Below, piece by piece: positions 4,569-47,353 of a stretch of 64,000 bases of DNA (its first letter is position 1; each line of letters opens with the position of its first letter). Below the pieces are notes generated by a model. It worked only from the letters and a program-made list of their open reading frames with translations. It searched no databases and was not told the origin of the DNA. This DNA is from Planctomycetia bacterium (lineage in GTDB: Bacteria > Planctomycetota > Planctomycetia > Gemmatales > HRBIN36). The position numbers were made by a program, and so were the translations under genes. The DNA is taken from positions 129,212-193,211 of the forward strand of contig JAEUIE010000029.1 in assembly GCA_016795155.1 (NCBI GenBank), given 5' to 3'.

Positions 4569-5198
4569 TCAATCTTCCTCATCTTCCTTCATCTTCATCA
4601 ACCAGATTGCCCGAATGGTTTTCAGTTTCCTTTCGATGGAACGCACCGATCTACCGAGTTGCTGAGCCATTTCCTCATTGGAGTAACCTTCCAGTCGAAG
4701 CAAAGCAACCTGGGAGAGTTCCTTATCGCGCAATGCTGCAAATAGTCGTTCGCACTCTTCAGTGAAGATCGCAGCTAAGTCAGGCTCGACCTGTTTGCCA
4801 GGCATCACATCTGGGCTGCCCGGTGAAGATTCATTTGAATTGAAGAACACCGATTCGCCACGAACGGCATCGCCACCCCGTTTCTGAGCATGAATCCGTC
4901 GAAGGTGATCAACAGTTTTCCGTTTAGTCAGTACACGAAGGATGAGCCACAGATCGCTCCGATCATTCAACTGGACAAACCTTCCCTCAGCTGCCCCTCG
5001 AAAGAAACTGTTCATAACACTCAGTGCAATATCTTCTTCATCTCTGACACGACGAGCCCGCGCCTGCAGTTGTTGTCTGGACGCCACCATCAATTGATCA
5101 AAATACCTGTTCCAGAGTTCCTGTTCTGCAGCCTGATCACGACCTTGCTTGATCTTCTCCAGTAAATCGACCATGGAATCTCTGTTTATCTGATCCAT
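4569..5198 (-). CDS. ECF-type RNA polymerase sigma factor (planctomycete/verrucomicrobial ECF-like subfamily)
   Basis: 209 aa. The N-terminus LLEKIKQGRDQAAEQELWNRYFDQL and the C-terminal HTH EGYSNEEMAQQLGRSVRSIERKL are typical region 2 and region 4 signatures. Confidence 0.85.
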   Translation of the reverse strand: MDQINRDSMVDLLEKIKQGRDQAAEQELWNRYFDQLMVASRQQLQARARRVRDEEDIALSVMNSFFRGAAEGRFVQLNDRSDLWLILRVLTKRKTVDHLRRIHAQKRGGDAVRGESVFFNSNESSPGSPDVMPGKQVEPDLAAIFTEECERLFAALRDKELSQVALLRLEGYSNEEMAQQLGRSVRSIERKLKTIRAIWLMKMKEDEED

Positions 5199-41693: not shown

Positions 41694-42607
41694 TTCGCCT
41701 GGGCTTATGCTGTTGTTTCTCTGATGAGCCTATACGCTTCTCCACGACAACTGCTGCTGCCATCAGTCGACTGGCACGCCAGGCGGCACTGGAGAAACTG
41801 GGCAATCTGGCTCTTGCTAATGCCCACTCACTGATCGCCGCTCTCAGCTATTGCAGCGAAAATGGAATCGGTTGTTTCCGTGTGCTGAGCCAGATACTTC
41901 CACTCAAAACACATCCGACACATGGTTATGAAATTGCCGATCTCCCGCAGGGCAAGGAGATCAAATTGCTGTTTCTGCAGGCTGGTGCTTTCGCAGGTAA
42001 GTTGGGCATCAGAACCTGCTTTCATCCCGATCAGTTCGTCGTTCTGAACTCGCCTAAACCCGAAGTGGTGAATGCTTCCATTCGTGAACTGGAATACCAG
42101 GCTGAAGTAGCAGAGTGGATTGGCGCTGATGTCATCAACATTCACGGCGGCGGTGCGTTTGGCGACAAGCCCAGGGCGCTCGATGCATTCGCCCAATGCC
42201 TGCAGCGACTTTCCCCTGCAGTCAGAAAACGCTTAACTCTGGAGAACGATGACAGGATCTATTCTCCTTCTGACCTTCTGCCTCTGTGTCAGTCGTATCA
42301 GATTCCACTCGTGTACGATGTTCATCACCATCGCTGTCACCCCGATAACCTACGTGTGGAGGAGGCTACCAAACAGGCGATTGCCACCTGGAATCGGGAA
42401 CCCTTGTTCCACATTTCCTCACCCTGTGAAGGATGGAAGGGACCAAAGCCACAGCGCCATCACGACTATATCAACATCAGCGATTTTCCTCGCTGCTGGC
42501 TGAAACATAACCTGACCGTTGAAGTGGAAGCCCGTGCCAAGGAGAAAGCTGTTCTGAAATTAAGCAGCCAGCTTACTGTGAGGAAAATCCAAGTCGCTAC
42601 TCACTGA
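41690..42607 (+). CDS. uvsE: UV damage endonuclease
   Basis: The N-terminus MIRLGLCC...EPIRF and TIM-barrel His/Glu pattern (NIHGGG, LENDD, DVHHH) are typical of UvdE/UvsE. Confidence 0.85.
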   Translation: MIRLGLCCCFSDEPIRFSTTTAAAISRLARQAALEKLGNLALANAHSLIAALSYCSENGIGCFRVLSQILPLKTHPTHGYEIADLPQGKEIKLLFLQAGAFAGKLGIRTCFHPDQFVVLNSPKPEVVNASIRELEYQAEVAEWIGADVINIHGGGAFGDKPRALDAFAQCLQRLSPAVRKRLTLENDDRIYSPSDLLPLCQSYQIPLVYDVHHHRCHPDNLRVEEATKQAIATWNREPLFHISSPCEGWKGPKPQRHHDYINISDFPRCWLKHNLTVEVEARAKEKAVLKLSSQLTVRKIQVATH

Positions 42608-43143
42608 CTGCGTCGCAATGCCAACATAATATCTGTTACCGTAGGGCGGTCTGACGGATCAGTACTGCGATGGGCATAGATTAACTTACGAGATCGGTCG
42701 ACGATAAAGTCGCCACCCAGTTGCAGCAAATCTTCCTGCTTCACTGGTCGCCTGATTCTCCAGCCACGGAACATGTGGGAAAAATAACTGCCGAGCACTT
42801 TGGGAGATAAGAACATCCAGACGCTGCCTGGCTGCAACCCCAGTGCCTTGTAAGTCATTCGTTCCGGGTCACATACTACAGGAAACGGCTTTGGATTATC
42901 TTCGAGCCAGACTATTAAGTTCTGTGGTTTGCTTTGCGTTACGACGATCAACTTTGCGCCGAGTGAACGAATCTCTTCCAGATGTTTCTGCACCTCGCCG
43001 AGGTGTGCCTGGCAGAGGATTCACATCAGATGGCGAAAGTATATTAGCAGAGCTGATCCGGGGGACAACTGCGATATGGTTACCTGTGTTCCATCAGGTT
43101 GATGAAATACGAGGTCAGTTACCATGTCTCCCAGTTTGATCAT
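42601..43143 (-). CDS. Peroxiredoxin-like (AhpC/TSA_2, PRXL2/SelU-like) protein; candidate selenoprotein with in-frame TGA at 43021..43023 (UxxC)
   Basis: The track shows only the C-terminal 130 aa, from GTG 42993. The same frame continues upstream through one TGA to ATG 43143. This gives MIKLGDMVTDLVFHQPDGTQVTISQLSPGSALLIYFRHLM-U-ILCQAHLGEVQKHLEEI..., where the TGA replaces the first Cys of the family's RHxxCxxC motif. Confidence 0.6.
42978..43012 (-). other. Candidate bacterial SECIS-like hairpin downstream of TGA 43021..43023
   Basis: On the minus strand the upper stem is CACCUC/GAGGUG (43005..42991) with a GGC loop, starting 15 nt after the UGA. A possible lower stem is CCAG (43012..43009) / CUGG (42981..42978). 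Confidence 0.3.
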
Positions 43144-43215
43144 ATCAGTGTTCTACAGCTTTAGTTGCTGCTGCAGGGGGGACTGGATGGGTTTCGATGA
43201 CCGGATTCTCGACAG

Positions 43216-43229
43216 GCCGCGACCGCGGC
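43216..43229 (-). other. GC-rich hairpin with a GGUC loop, 17 nt downstream of TGA 43247..43249 (candidate SECIS-like element)
   Basis: On the minus strand the sequence is GCCGC-GGUC-GCGGC. The loop sequence is the same as I recall for the apical loop of the E. coli fdhF SECIS. Confidence 0.3.
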
Positions 43230-43246
43230 GTACATGCTCCACTCAG

Positions 43247-43390
43247 TCAGGTCTGAACACCCATGCTCGGCAGTATCCAGAGTTGCAGGGCAAAGTAAGC
43301 ACCGATTAATCCAGCCAGCATCAGCAGGTCCATCATCGGATTTTTCCGTTTGGGAGTTATCGTTGTGTTCTGATCAGGTGAAGTATCCAT
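43247..43390 (-). CDS. Small single-pass membrane protein (47 aa to the TGA; 81 aa if the TGA is decoded)
   Basis: ATG 43390. The sequence is MDTSPDQNTTITPKRKNPMMDLLMLAGLIGAYFALQLWILPSMGVQT, then TGA. It is too short for the track. It lies 17 nt after the upstream gene, and the read-through frame ends 1 nt before the Prx-like ATG. Confidence 0.35.
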   Translation of the reverse strand: MDTSPDQNTTITPKRKNPMMDLLMLAGLIGAYFALQLWILPSMGVQT

Positions 43391-43407
43391 CGTTTTGCTT
43401 CCTGAGA

Positions 43408-43938
43408 TTATTTTCTTGGTTGCTCGGGTGCTGCATGATTCTTGCGTACTTCAGCATGCCCGTTTTTAACGAAGAGGCTTACTACATCTGCGTGAGCCTC
43501 AATCAGCCTGGCAGTAAACGGATCATCAGAAGTTTCAATCACCTTTACACCTTTTTCCGTTTTTTCCACAGACATCGTTATTTTAGAACTATTTCGAAAG
43601 ACAGCGGCGAACAGTGGATCACGCAGGTGAATGCCACGTCCTTCCTTAACGCGACGATGCATCGCTTCCACATGCTCTTTAATTTTTTCGGCAACCTGGG
43701 GCTTGGTGGATTCAGTAATTGTCTCAACGCCGTTTTTCCGTTTTGTAACATCCCGCGTAATTTCGGTGTGATGAGATAGAAGGAATTGAAAATCTTCCTG
43801 ATCTTTTTTCATCCGTTCATCTTTCCGACCTTGTCTGGGCATTCCTTCGGATGTCGGCCCTAGTGCTAGGGTCGCTGTATGAGCACCCAGGAACAGCATA
43901 CAGGTAGTCGTCACGGATAATGCCATCGTTCTTCGCAT
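43408..43938 (-). CDS. Hypothetical secreted protein, first gene of the Prx-like operon
   Basis: 176 aa with the signal peptide MRRTMALSVTTTCMLFLGAHTATLALG. Charged and His-containing, with no family assigned. Confidence 0.6.
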   Translation of the reverse strand: MRRTMALSVTTTCMLFLGAHTATLALGPTSEGMPRQGRKDERMKKDQEDFQFLLSHHTEITRDVTKRKNGVETITESTKPQVAEKIKEHVEAMHRRVKEGRGIHLRDPLFAAVFRNSSKITMSVEKTEKGVKVIETSDDPFTARLIEAHADVVSLFVKNGHAEVRKNHAAPEQPRK

Positions 43939-43970
43939 GTTTGAATCCTCGTTGGTATCTTCCGCAGCGT

Positions 43971-43998
43971 TGATCCAGTTACCTGGTAAAAGTTACAA
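43971..43998 (-). promoter_or_regulatory. Candidate ECF-type promoter for the 43938..42601 operon (TGTAAC-N15-GGATCAA)
   Basis: The minus strand reads TGTAACTTTTACCAGGTAACTGGATCAA. It matches 20 of 28 positions of the divergent motif at 44018..44045, with identical block spacing. Confidence 0.4.
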
Positions 43999-44017
43999 GT
44001 GATTTCGGGAAACGCGC

Positions 44018-44045
44018 TGTAACCTTTTTCCGTATACGGGATCAA
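44018..44045 (+). promoter_or_regulatory. Candidate ECF-type promoter for the rhodanese-sigma-antisigma operon (TGTAAC-N15-GGATCAA)
   Basis: The plus strand reads TGTAACCTTTTTCCGTATACGGGATCAA, ending 46 nt upstream of ATG 44092. The AAC-containing -35-like block followed by a T run is typical of ECF promoters. Confidence 0.4.
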
Positions 44046-44091
44046 AAGTTCTGCATCAGACAGGTGCTGATGGAAAATTCCAATCAGGAGG

Positions 44092-44487
44092 ATGGTAATG
44101 CGTTACCTCTGTAGTTGTGCAATCTTGTTCCTAAGTCTGACAGGTACCAGTCGAGCGGGTGATCATACCAAGGATTCTTTGCAGACCGTCAAGCAGGGAG
44201 TAGCATCCCAGAAAGCATTGCTGGTTGATGTCCGTGAAAACGATGAATGGAAAGAGGGACATATCAAGGGGGCAAAGCATCTGCCTTTATCACAACTGCA
44301 GAAGGGCGTGAATAAGGAACAACTGAAGCAGGTCCTGCCTGAAGGCAAAATCATCTATCTGTACTGTGCTGCCGGTGGTCGGTGCCTGAAAGCTGCTGAC
44401 TTGCTGAAGAAACAGGGAATAGACGTCAGAGCACTCAAGCCAGGTTACGAAGCTTTGGTTCGTGCCGGTTTTGAGAATGCACCCTAG
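44092..44487 (+). CDS. Secreted single-domain rhodanese (sulfurtransferase)
   Basis: 131 aa with a signal peptide. It has LVDVRENDEWKEGHIKGAKHLP and the active-site loop YCAAGGRC. Confidence 0.85.
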   Translation: MVMRYLCSCAILFLSLTGTSRAGDHTKDSLQTVKQGVASQKALLVDVRENDEWKEGHIKGAKHLPLSQLQKGVNKEQLKQVLPEGKIIYLYCAAGGRCLKAADLLKKQGIDVRALKPGYEALVRAGFENAP

Positions 44488-44541
44488 TATCCGGTGGGAG
44501 GTTCGGCTATGCTGATAGCGTTTCCTTCGTGATTCAGGATC

Positions 44542-45195
44542 ATGCAACTTGATCAGCCACATGCTGGTGCCACCGAATCAACCGATGAGTGCCTGTCTTT
44601 GCTCAGGCAGGCACAAACGGGTGATTTCTCGGCCTTCGGACAATTGATCAATCAATTGCAGCATCGGGTCTACGGCTTGGCCTATCGCATGCTGGGAGAA
44701 ACACATGATGCCGAAGATATCACACAGCAAACGTTCCTGAGCCTGATCGAACATCTGGATAGTTTTCGAGGCGAATCCCGCGTGAGCACCTGGGTGATGC
44801 GAATCGCTGCCAATCATGCCTTGAAGCTACTTCGTAAAAGGAGAGGTTTGCCGGTGGAGCCTTCAGGCGGCATGCCTCATCCGGAGTTTATTGCGCCCTG
44901 GCGTGAGCAACCGGGTGTGCTGGCGGAACAGGCCGAAACCAGCAAACTGATTCATGAGGCCCTGCGCGAAATCAACTCCGGCTTACGGGAAGTATTCGTG
45001 CTTCGCGATATAGAAGGATTTTCAGTGAAGGAATCAGCAGAGCTACTGGGGATCAGTGAGGCTAATGTTAAAGTTCGCCTGCTCCGAGCCAGATTGTCAC
45101 TGCGTGAACGATTGACTGCAGTTCTGGGCGATCAGGCATTGCGTGTCATACCTGATCATCAACATCATGCTGCAAACACAGGTTACGCATCATGA
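44542..45195 (+). CDS. ECF sigma factor
   Basis: Region 2 is AEDITQQTFLSLIEHLDSFRGESRVSTWVMRIAANHAL and region 4 is GFSVKESAELLGISEANVKVRLLRARL. It has a 4-nt overlap with the anti-sigma gene. Confidence 0.85.
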   Translation: MQLDQPHAGATESTDECLSLLRQAQTGDFSAFGQLINQLQHRVYGLAYRMLGETHDAEDITQQTFLSLIEHLDSFRGESRVSTWVMRIAANHALKLLRKRRGLPVEPSGGMPHPEFIAPWREQPGVLAEQAETSKLIHEALREINSGLREVFVLRDIEGFSVKESAELLGISEANVKVRLLRARLSLRERLTAVLGDQALRVIPDHQHHAANTGYAS

Positions 45196-45464
45196 ACGAG
45201 CATACACATCAAGGCATGTCCTGCGACGAGTTATTGAAAGCGCTCAATGATTATGTTGATAACGATTCGCTTTCAGCTGCCTGCCAGGCATTTGCTGAAC
45301 ATCTGGCGGGTTGTAATCCCTGTCAGATTGTCGTCGATAACATCCGAAACACCATTAAGTTGTTTCAGAATGGCAAGCCATACCCCATTCCGCCAGAATT
45401 CGCAAAACGGCTCAATGCTGCCCTGGCCAGTCGCTGGCGTGAGAAATTTCATGCAGCAAGATGA
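45192..45464 (+). CDS. Soluble zinc-binding anti-sigma factor (ZAS, RsrA-like)
   Basis: 90 aa with no TM segment. It has the HxxxCxxC motif (HLAGCNPC) plus an N-terminal Cys (MSCDELL), and it is translationally coupled to the sigma gene. Confidence 0.7.
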   Translation: MNEHTHQGMSCDELLKALNDYVDNDSLSAACQAFAEHLAGCNPCQIVVDNIRNTIKLFQNGKPYPIPPEFAKRLNAALASRWREKFHAAR

Positions 45465-45527
45465 TCTGTTCGATTGCACATATTCATCTTCAACAGTTGA
45501 TAATCAGAATCGGGAAGGGTAACAGAT

Positions 45528-45917
45528 ATGCCAGGCGAAAACAGCAACCTACTCGATGATATTCGCGTTCCCCTGGCGGCGGAACGCACCTTGCTCGCCT
45601 GGATTCGCACTGGCTTGGCCATGATGGGCTTCGGCTTCGTCGTCGCACGTTTCGGTGTATTTCTCCGCGAACTGCATCCCGCTGATCATGCCCAGCATCC
45701 GGAGTACAGCAAGTCGCTCTATATCGGTGCCGGCATGGTTATTCTGGGCATTGCCATCAACCTCCTGGCCGCCGTTGGGCACTTCAGGCTGCTGCGACGA
45801 TTGGAAAAAGGATTCACGTACAAGCCGTCACTCTTTTCACTGGTGATGGTGATTGCCCTGTGCGTTGCCATCATCGGTATCGTCATGACCGTGCATCTGC
45901 TCGGCATGACAGGCTGA
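45528..45917 (+). CDS. DUF202 (YidH-like) membrane protein
   Basis: 129 aa with LAAERTLLAWIRTGLAMMGFG and three hydrophobic segments. Confidence 0.7.
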   Translation: MPGENSNLLDDIRVPLAAERTLLAWIRTGLAMMGFGFVVARFGVFLRELHPADHAQHPEYSKSLYIGAGMVILGIAINLLAAVGHFRLLRRLEKGFTYKPSLFSLVMVIALCVAIIGIVMTVHLLGMTG

Positions 45918-45946: not shown

Positions 45947-47353
45947 ATGTTTTTCCGACAACGCTTCATTCCTGGGCTGGCGATCTATTCCTACCTGATC
46001 GGCGATGAAAAGACTCGCGAATGTGCCGTCATCGACCCGGCACGTGATATCGATGCCTACTTTCAGATGGCTCACGAAGAAGGTATGCAGATCAATCACA
46101 TTCTCGAAACCCATGTTCATGCTGACTATGTTTCCGGCTCCGTCGAAGTCAAACACCGCACCGGTGGCAAAGCACAGATCCATGCCTCAGGCATGGGTGG
46201 CAAAGAATGGACACCACCCTATGCCGATCATGTGGTTAAGGATGGCGATGAAGTTGTCATGGGTTCCATTCGCATTAAAGCAATGCACACACCAGGGCAC
46301 ACACCAGAACATCTGGTCTGGCTGGTATTCGATCACACGCGCAGCCAGGATACTCCCTGGATGATGTTCTCCGGCGATTTCCTGTTTGTGGGTGATGTAG
46401 GCCGTCCCGATTTGCTCGGCGAAGAAGCCCGCAAACAACTCGCCAGCCAGCTCTACCAGAGCGTCTTCAAAACAATGCCTGCACTGGCAGACTTCACCGA
46501 GTTCTATCCTGGTCACGGTGCTGGTTCACTCTGTGGCAAAGCTCTCGGCACACGAGGCTCATCGACGCTCGGCTTCGAACGCCGTTTCAACGATGCTTTG
46601 AAAACATCGACCGAACAGGCCTGGATCAACCAGTTGCTCGAAGGCATGCCCACTGCGCCGCCTTACTTTCTCAAGATGAAAGCGGTCAATGCTGCCGGGC
46701 CGCAGGTACTGGGACACGAATGGCCCGGCCAACGCCGCTTGTCTGCCAAACAGTTTCAAATGCAGACCAGCAAAGGTGGATTGGTACTTGATCTGCGCAG
46801 CAAGGAAGCCTTTGCAGCGGCACATATTCCCAATGCCCTCAGCATTCCGCTGGCCAGTAATGTATCCTCGTGGGCAGGCTGGGTGGTCCCCTACGATCAG
46901 CCTCTGTACCTGGTGATGGAAGACATGAACAAAGTGCAGGAAGCCATCACACACCTGATCCGCATCGGGTTTGATAATATCCAAGGCACACTCGATGGTG
47001 GCATGGAAGCCTGGGAAAACGCAGGCCTGCCTGTAGCTACCTTATCCGTCCAAAGCGTTCACGATCTGCATCGACAACTGAAAAGCAAGGCTGGCGAGTT
47101 GACCGTGCTCGATGTCCGAACTCCTCGCGAATGGCAAAGCGGGCACATCGAAGGCGCACAGCACATTCATGCTGGCCTGTTGCAGAAGAATATCAATTCG
47201 ATTAATCGCAAGAAACCGGTTGCAGTGGTGTGTGGCACAGGCTACCGTGGTTCCATCGCAGGTTCCATTCTGCTTCGGGAAGGTTTGACCAACGTCACCA
47301 ATGTGCTAGGTGGCATGACAGCTTGGAAAGCTGCGGAGTTACCTGTCGTCTGA
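45947..47353 (+). CDS. MBL-fold metallo-hydrolase fused to two rhodanese domains (CstB/Blh-like persulfide dioxygenase-sulfurtransferase candidate)
   Basis: ATG 45947 (MFFRQRFIPG); the track ORF starts earlier. It has the metal motif ETHVHADYVSG and HTPGHTPEH. The C-terminal rhodanese has the active loop VVCGTGYRGS. Confidence 0.85.
   Translation: MFFRQRFIPGLAIYSYLIGDEKTRECAVIDPARDIDAYFQMAHEEGMQINHILETHVHADYVSGSVEVKHRTGGKAQIHASGMGGKEWTPPYADHVVKDGDEVVMGSIRIKAMHTPGHTPEHLVWLVFDHTRSQDTPWMMFSGDFLFVGDVGRPDLLGEEARKQLASQLYQSVFKTMPALADFTEFYPGHGAGSLCGKALGTRGSSTLGFERRFNDALKTSTEQAWINQLLEGMPTAPPYFLKMKAVNAAGPQVLGHEWPGQRRLSAKQFQMQTSKGGLVLDLRSKEAFAAAHIPNALSIPLASNVSSWAGWVVPYDQPLYLVMEDMNKVQEAITHLIRIGFDNIQGTLDGGMEAWENAGLPVATLSVQSVHDLHRQLKSKAGELTVLDVRTPREWQSGHIEGAQHIHAGLLQKNINSINRKKPVAVVCGTGYRGSIAGSILLREGLTNVTNVLGGMTAWKAAELPVV

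Follow-up and report, generated by a model that had tools for sequence, protein, structure and literature searches.

Predicted divergent ECF-type promoters, very probably read by the adjacent sigma factor, at a rhodanese and selenoprotein locus of the Planctomycetota

ECF sigma factors are usually autoregulated and recognise an AAC-containing -35 element, which is followed by a T-rich spacer. The promoter of group ECF12, with SigH-RshA of C. glutamicum and SigR-RsrA of Streptomyces, reads GGAAT-N18-GTT; in group ECF16 the anti-sigma factor is a multi-pass membrane protein of the NrsF/DUF1109 type, and RsiW of B. subtilis is membrane-anchored and removed by regulated proteolysis. In C. glutamicum, sigH-rshA is read from housekeeping promoters; a further, SigH-dependent promoter serves only rshA and shuts the response down (PMC3489674). 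ECF16 sigma factors recognise tGTAACc-N16-CGAA, with transcription starts mapped for Bradyrhizobium EcfF (6 bp past the -10 box) and Brucella BcrS; they autoregulate, drive a divergent or neighbouring target operon and are induced by the oxidants H2O2 and HOCl (PMC3420878, PMC8315932). A -35 box TGTAAC is also known from SigX of B. subtilis, there combined with the -10 box CGWC (PMC12153292). The literature search returned no paper on an ECF/ZAS/rhodanese system in Planctomycetes, and the main text of the 2021 ECF re-classification makes no mention of rhodanese or GTAAC (PMC7826278).

The locus presented here is part of a window of 64,000 nucleotides (C19:129212-193211 of the assembly), the whole stretch of DNA that was analysed. 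With ECF12 it shares the combination of an ECF sigma factor and a small soluble ZAS anti-sigma factor, sigma-dependent promoters (here predicted) at the locus which feed back on sigma and/or anti-sigma factor, and a regulon in which thiol-redox genes (e.g., those of thioredoxin and redoxins) abound. Differences lie in the promoter, TGTAAC-N16-(G/C)ATC, which is unlike that of ECF12, in the phylum, Planctomycetota, in the targets, here sulfur proteins of the periplasm or membrane together with selenoproteins, and in the sigma factor itself, whose closest solved structure is SigW (5wuq, E 4e-22) and which is more distant from M. tuberculosis SigH (E 6e-12). The ZAS protein reaches 26.1 bits against the RsrA equivalog model TIGR03988, below its cut-off of 62.5. 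Since neither this model nor the ECF12 promoter is matched, the system would work like SigR-RsrA and SigH-RshA without being a member of that group. The ECF16 systems (Caulobacter SigF, Bradyrhizobium EcfF-OsrA, Brucella BcrS-AbcS) have a -35 box TGTAAC(c) and a spacer length identical to those found here, and have autoregulation (here predicted) together with a divergent or neighbouring target operon in common with this locus; their -10 box, however, is CGAA instead of G(G/C)ATC, and the anti-sigma factor here is a soluble zf-HC2 protein and not a membrane protein. B. subtilis SigX likewise shares TGTAAC and differs in the -10 box, and RsiW is a ZAS protein like the anti-sigma factor here, which unlike RsiW lacks a membrane segment. 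The box G(G/C)ATC is a variant in which only the TC core is shared. The logic of the proposed circuit, in which an ECF sigma factor would regulate itself, drive a divergent operon and also act on a promoter of its anti-sigma gene, is already textbook knowledge, and the most interesting content is to be found in the genes controlled rather than in the promoters themselves.

Exact pattern search of the window for TGTAAC-N15-GGATCAA gave two matches in the divergent intergenic region. The plus-strand copy at 44018-44045 reads TGTAACCTTTTTCCGTATACGGGATCAA and agrees with the initial annotation of this DNA, made from the sequence by eye of a model. The minus-strand copy reads TGTAACTTTTACCAGGTAACTGGATCAA; its sequence had been given correctly and its position one base off, at 43998..43971 instead of 43970-43997, and as a consequence the TGTAAC hexamers are 20 nt apart, not 19. 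The region around both copies was resolved into the following features:

44018..44045, plus strand: predicted ECF-type promoter P(+), an exact match to the motif, with boxes invariant in alignment A2
44018-44024 and 44039-44045, plus strand: -35 box TGTAAC(C) and -10 box GGATC(AA) of P(+)
about 44050-44052, plus strand: predicted transcription start of P(+)
44049..44077, plus strand: imperfect hairpin where the P(+) transcript is predicted to begin (11-nt arms, 82% complementary, 7-nt loop)
43998..44017, no strand: spacer of 20 nt between the divergent -35 hexamers in back-to-back layout
43970..43997, minus strand: predicted ECF-type promoter P(-), an exact match to the motif
43997->43992 and 43976->43970, minus strand: -35 box TGTAAC and -10 box GGATC(AA) of P(-)
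about 43965-43963, minus strand: predicted transcription start of P(-)

A repeat search described the two copies as an inverted repeat with 28-nt arms, 20 nt apart and 71% complementary, which equals the 20 of 28 matching positions counted beforehand. The gap from start codon to start codon measures 153 nt (43939-44091), as annotated, if the rhodanese begins at ATG 44092, and 159 nt with ATG 44098, which is the better spaced start behind AGGAGG at 44086-44091. From the end of the motif to the first start it is 46 or 52 nt on the P(+) side, depending on the ATG, and 31 nt on the P(-) side (start at 43938), close to the 30-50 nt estimated earlier. Sigma-70-type promoters and terminators were no more frequent in the region than in shuffled sequences, and no known RNA family was detected within 42400-45600. 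The hairpin at 44049-44077 on the plus strand may be a stabilising 5' stem-loop of the rhodanese-sigma transcript.

Were the resemblance of the two copies a product of chance or of neutral local duplication and without function, nothing beyond the small size of the motif could be cited in favour. None of 100 shuffles of the window contained TGTAAC-N15-GGATCAA, and the whole assembly (5,277,399 bp in 68 contigs) holds exactly these two copies, at a chance expectation of about 0.16 (uniform model, 13 fixed bases, both strands); moreover, the motif is conserved across families in which the flanking DNA has diverged. We consider this explanation practically negligible.

Downstream of P(+) the following genes are encoded:

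44098..44487 (alternative ATG 44092), plus strand: secreted single-domain rhodanese, first gene of P(+) (Pfam PF00581, E 2.9e-17)
44542..45195, plus strand: ECF (group 4) sigma factor with Sigma70_r2 and r4_2, proposed reader of both promoters
45192..45464, plus strand: soluble, zinc-binding ZAS anti-sigma factor of 90 aa (zf-HC2, 27.8 bits at a cut-off of 22.2)
45528..45917, plus strand: DUF202 membrane protein (Pfam PF02656), possible read-through member of the P(+) operon
45947..47353, plus strand: persulfide-dioxygenase-like protein of metallo-beta-lactamase (MBL) fold with two rhodanese domains (Pfam Lactamase_B and two Rhodanese), possible read-through member

Downstream of P(-) are located:

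43408..43938, minus strand: sec176, uncharacterised secreted protein of 176 aa with two alpha-beta-beta-alpha repeats, first gene of P(-)
43145..43390, minus strand: small membrane ORF with in-frame TGA at 43249->43247, read-through product of 81 aa containing T-U-LSGAC
about 43229->43216, minus strand: hairpin downstream of the TGA of the small ORF
42601..43143, minus strand: SelL-related, Prx-like UxxC selenoprotein, last gene of the P(-) operon (NCBIfam NF040769, 161 bits at a cut-off of 120)

The rhodanese possesses a signal-peptide-like N-terminus. With 217 aa and sigma-70 regions 2 and 4 only (PF04542, E 2.1e-18; PF08281, E 1.8e-14; TIGR02937, 115.7 bits at a cut-off of 42.9), the sigma factor has the composition and the length of about 200 aa that define ECF (group 4). 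The start of the ZAS gene overlaps the sigma stop by 4 nt, and its product, in which no hydrophobic segment was found in the sequence, carries C11, H37, C41 and C44 (read from the sequence), i.e., the H-x3-C-x2-C pattern with an upstream Cys or His that characterises a class I ZAS protein adjoining its sigma gene. As in an autoregulated operon, the cognate motif lies upstream of the transcription unit of the sigma gene, P(+) being situated 46-52 nt before the rhodanese, and the gap of 54 nt between rhodanese and sigma gene contains no predicted terminator. The arrangement of P(+), rhodanese and sigma gene was encountered in six other genomes, and a P(+)-equivalent site is present upstream of rhodanese, sigma and ZAS genes in G004, G003, G002, G031, G027 and G020.

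The initial annotation had assigned five genes to the P(+) operon, of which rhodanese, sigma and ZAS were corroborated, whereas comparative support for DUF202 and MBL-rhodanese was not obtained. The DUF202 gene follows the ZAS gene after 63 nt and the MBL-rhodanese gene begins after a same-strand gap of 29 nt, with no terminator predicted in either; these gaps permit, and do not prove, read-through from P(+), to which both genes possibly belong. Apart from the window's genome, a DUF202 gene near the sigma gene was detected only in G020, and the nearest homologues of MBL-rhodanese and DUF202 in the congeners G002 and G004 (39-41% identity) are located elsewhere without a motif, for which reason the two were rejected as regulon members. 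As they stand together beside the sigma gene in this genome only and their homologues are motif-less, the case for membership comes down to the 63- and 29-nt gaps.

Orthologues of the sigma factor, delimited by E <= 4e-59 and HMMER identities of 52-77%, are present in 15 of 40 relatives, these 15 loci coming from related Gemmatales genomes; the hits following these 15 have E >= 3e-31, and about 12.6 kb was taken around each orthologous gene where the contig allowed. The pattern TGTAAC-N14-17-[GC]ATC occurs 20 times in these loci (53.5 kb), in 14 of the 15, compared with a single occurrence, in one locus, among 14 paralogous ECF loci (49.4 kb). A control with the pattern reversed had no match in either set. 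Both the proposal that the adjacent ECF sigma factor drives its own and the divergent operon and the expectation that the motif recurs in orthologous regions are supported by these counts. G037 has a sigma orthologue with neither the motif nor an adjoining ZAS gene.

A consensus, TGTAAC(C)-N14/15-G(G/C)ATC, was drawn from 27 sites, a 28th match (G005, 14-nt spacer) being left out as doubtful. Positions left free in the search proved to be constrained, with C directly after TGTAAC in 21 sites and G directly before [GC]ATC in 26. AAC and [GC]ATC are separated by 16 nt in 20 sites and by 17 nt in the other seven, and each of the 27 sites is correctly oriented towards an ORF start 4-68 nt downstream. 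The sites accordingly have the usual form of ECF-type promoters, in which an AAC-containing -35 box is followed after 16-17 nt by a short -10 box whose core is (G)TC; against a reading as promoters stands the -10 core (G/C)ATC, which departs from the common ECF form CGT(C/A) and drifts between lineages. Alignment A2 covers the divergent intergenic region in four genomes. Its runs of invariant columns are confined to the boxes GATCC, GTTAC and TGTAACC, and the DNA outside the four boxes has diverged; the 17-nt spacer of G027 shifts the fourth box, GGATC, by one column in that genome. A T-rich spacer, mentioned in the initial annotation, was retrieved in the lower-GC genus of the window only and not in its high-GC relatives.

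A later test set, consisting of a 300-genome sample of the phylum and two MAG loci, was gathered after the motif had been defined. The sample contributed four further sigma orthologues from other families (HMMER identity 49-52%), all four with [T/C]GTAACC, 14 nt and GG(G/C)TC adjoining the sigma or the ZAS gene, and one of them, G253, with a back-to-back divergent pair. Between sigma and ZAS genes, the Planctomycetaceae MAG locus displays CGTAAC...GGATCAA and the Pirellulales MAG locus TGTAACC...GTCTC. With the -10 variants GGGTC, GGCTC, GGATC and GTCTC in these six distant loci, the -35 box is stable across the lineage, and the -10 box drifts around a core of G-(G/C)-N-T-C.

Gene arrangement around the motif varies. 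The back-to-back layout was observed in seven genomes of at least five genera (G000, G004, G003, G002, G020, G027, G253), with -35 hexamers 20-28 nt apart, and the gene order rhodanese-sigma-ZAS is kept in seven genomes. For P(-), an equivalent site stands at the head of the sec176 side in G004, G003, G002, G027 and G031, and in G020 one lies before each of the two sec176 copies; altogether, sec176 homologues are preceded by the motif in G002, G003, G004, G020, G027 and G031. The sec176 homologue behind the motif in G031 (L033, about 5007-5129, minus strand) is a 67-aa C-terminal piece, possibly left by truncation or decay. The sister genera g2, g3, g4 and g8 and the two MAG loci show no motif before the sigma gene and instead one in the short gap between sigma stop and ZAS start (loci L034, L035, L039, L040, L042-L045, L048, L049), three of them with another motif after the ZAS gene; a single copy between sigma and ZAS genes was recorded in G006, G010, G007, G017, G011, G013, G005 and G014. 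This position would place the anti-sigma factor, and not the sigma factor, under sigma control, and resembles the SigH-dependent promoter of C. glutamicum that drives only rshA (PMC3489674).

The same variation bears on another explanation, according to which a dimeric transcription factor controls both operons through the 28-nt inverted repeat as its operator, and the repeat is not a pair of promoters. In favour stands the imperfect inverted repeat that the two copies form in the window, with complementary arms at a distance of 20 nt. Many orthologous loci, however, contain a single directional copy (e.g., in the sigma-ZAS gap, or in G102-type loci), which led us to reject the operator; besides, the individual copy is not palindromic, only two short boxes at promoter-like spacing are conserved, and every copy faces a gene start. 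An operator is consequently very improbable.

It could further be assumed that the motifs are genuine ECF promoters which are read by a paralogous sigma factor instead of the adjacent one. The genome offers candidates, 54 ECF-like ones at first look together with two additional hits of E about 1e-21 to 1e-25, and TGTAAC-type -35 boxes are common to unrelated ECF groups (PMC3420878, PMC12153292). Yet the motif tracks the orthologue of the adjacent sigma factor through at least 20 genomes with differing gene orders, is essentially absent at the 14 paralogous ECF loci, and is missing beside homologues of the targets where the orthologue is missing, no motif having been found within 1.5 kb of the sec176 homologues in G022 and G025 or of the small-ORF homologues in five genomes, all without sigma orthologue. 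Where the sigma factor is encoded elsewhere, the full TGTAAC-N15-GGATC is found directly upstream of the small ORF in G011, and no motif near the small-ORF gene in three other genomes. A paralogous reader seems improbable, if somewhat less so than an operator, and the comparative evidence makes it highly likely that the ECF sigma factor at 44542-45195 reads both divergent ECF-type promoters.

Judged from the sequences, the promoter pair very probably constitutes a conventional stress switch for sulfur and thiol redox genes, selenoproteins included. In the resting state the soluble zinc-cysteine ZAS anti-sigma factor would sequester the sigma factor, and a cytoplasmic thiol-reactive signal (an oxidant, an electrophile, or reactive sulfur or selenium species) would free it. 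The holoenzyme would then recognise TGTAAC(C) and G(G/C)ATC, AAC and the core (G/C)ATC being separated by 16-17 nt, at both divergent promoters, and would initiate about 6-8 nt past each -10 box, near 44050 and 43964. P(+) is expected to transcribe rhodanese, sigma and ZAS genes, possibly continuing into DUF202 and MBL-rhodanese, and P(-) the sec176 gene, the small membrane (seleno)protein and the SelL-like selenoprotein, so that release of the sigma factor would induce both operons together. As P(+) would transcribe sigma and ZAS genes alike, the sigma factor and its inhibitor would both be under sigma control, with positive feedback via the sigma factor and negative feedback via the ZAS protein. 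That the signal is thiol, reactive sulfur or selenium stress is suggested by the solubility of the ZAS protein and by the thiol and sulfur theme of the targets. The Cys/His pattern of the ZAS protein, however, is common to non-redox ZAS proteins such as RsiW, and redox sensing is not readable from it, which is why we give a thiol-reactive signal an even chance.

For an uncharacterised ECF lineage of the Planctomycetota, a phylum in which to our knowledge almost no promoters have been defined, a testable promoter consensus, TGTAAC(C)-N14/15-G(G/C)ATC, and a small core regulon are thereby at hand. An RsrA-like soluble anti-sigma factor becomes linked to periplasmic sulfur-transfer proteins and selenoproteins, and two uncharacterised families, sec176 and the small TGA-containing membrane ORF, are flagged as co-regulated partners.

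The genome scan proposed in the initial annotation confirmed the exact motif as unique to this locus and added no further convincing site in the window's genome. There, the strict pattern has nine matches at about ten expected by chance; only the two local ones combine a position outside long ORFs with a gene start at most about 50 nt away, and a third match outside long ORFs (C63:59127) is 142 nt away from the next ORF. Allowing up to one mismatch gave 313 matches in this genome, 20 of them outside long ORFs with an ORF downstream and none convincing. Whole-genome scans of six relatives counted 3-7 forward matches per genome versus 0-2 for the reversed control, and outside the sigma loci nearly all matches were inside long ORFs, the exceptions concerning G004 (an SDR gene) and G031 (a secreted AhpC/TSA redoxin). 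The scans thus indicate a small and mostly local regulon. Pooled over the genomes, motif-headed genes encode rhodanese, sigma factor, ZAS protein, sec176, the small membrane ORF and SelL-like or AhpC-like redoxins, and further a YgaP-like membrane domain, thioredoxin, a ferritin-like protein and a methyltransferase as well as, by ORF reading, a DUF302-like protein and an efflux adaptor. Recurrent among them are rhodanese, the sigma/ZAS pair, sec176, the small membrane ORF and Prx-like redoxins, and the targets in other genomes (thioredoxin, YgaP-like domain, AhpC/TSA redoxin, ferritin-like protein, ZAS) fit one theme.

No Pfam or NCBIfam family matches sec176, which with 306 homologues at E <= 1e-5 represents a widespread planctomycete family and is present in nine of 41 genomes; none of the 306 has a functional name apart from one JGI label as 'ribosomal protein L25 (Ctc)'. 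Invariant His, Met and Glu residues are visible in alignment A1. The AlphaFold2 model is confident (pLDDT 86), and a Foldseek comparison of it with the PDB yielded nothing at E <= 0.001 (best E 0.054, query TM-score <= 0.28).

The small membrane ORF was found in 17 of 41 genomes, and the TGA lies inside the match in all 17, which argues that it probably encodes a so far unannotated family of small membrane selenoproteins. Past the TGA, the residues (L/M/A)(S/R/G)(G/R)(A/S/Q)C are conserved, in most cases with xPRS behind them. Some 20 nt beyond the TGA a hairpin with GGUC-type loop is conserved as well, with different stems at this position in G253 and G007. Its product is matched by no Pfam or NCBIfam model, and the only Cys-containing homologues found were truncated calls of 47 aa. 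Read-through would extend the small ORF to 43145 and so to within one base of the SelL-like start; the operon would then be tightly packed and probably contain two selenoproteins. The SelL-related gene has its in-frame TGA at 43023->43021 (minus strand) with the hairpin CACCTCGGCGAGGTG just downstream, both conserved in the congeners G004 and G002, and a tRNA-Sec is encoded in the window's genome (C13:90415-90512).

A more far-reaching interpretation can be put forward tentatively, and we hold it to be rather less probable than not being so: the sigma/ZAS pair might act as master switch for a compact module of envelope defence that depends on selenium and is specific to Planctomycetes, with two selenoproteins in one operon, one of them the previously unannotated small membrane family with a T-U-x4-C motif, and with the secreted His/Met/Glu-rich two-repeat protein sec176, which has no structural neighbour in the PDB. 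The inducing signal of such a module would be reactive sulfur or selenium species and not classical disulfide stress.

Beyond the phylum, a sigma/ZAS pair with 44% identity was noticed in a Chloroflexia MAG (L050, 4906-4931), with TGTAAC-N14-CGTC (or, read otherwise, TGTAAC-N17-CATC) directly upstream of the sigma gene, and the -35 specificity may accordingly extend beyond the Planctomycetota.
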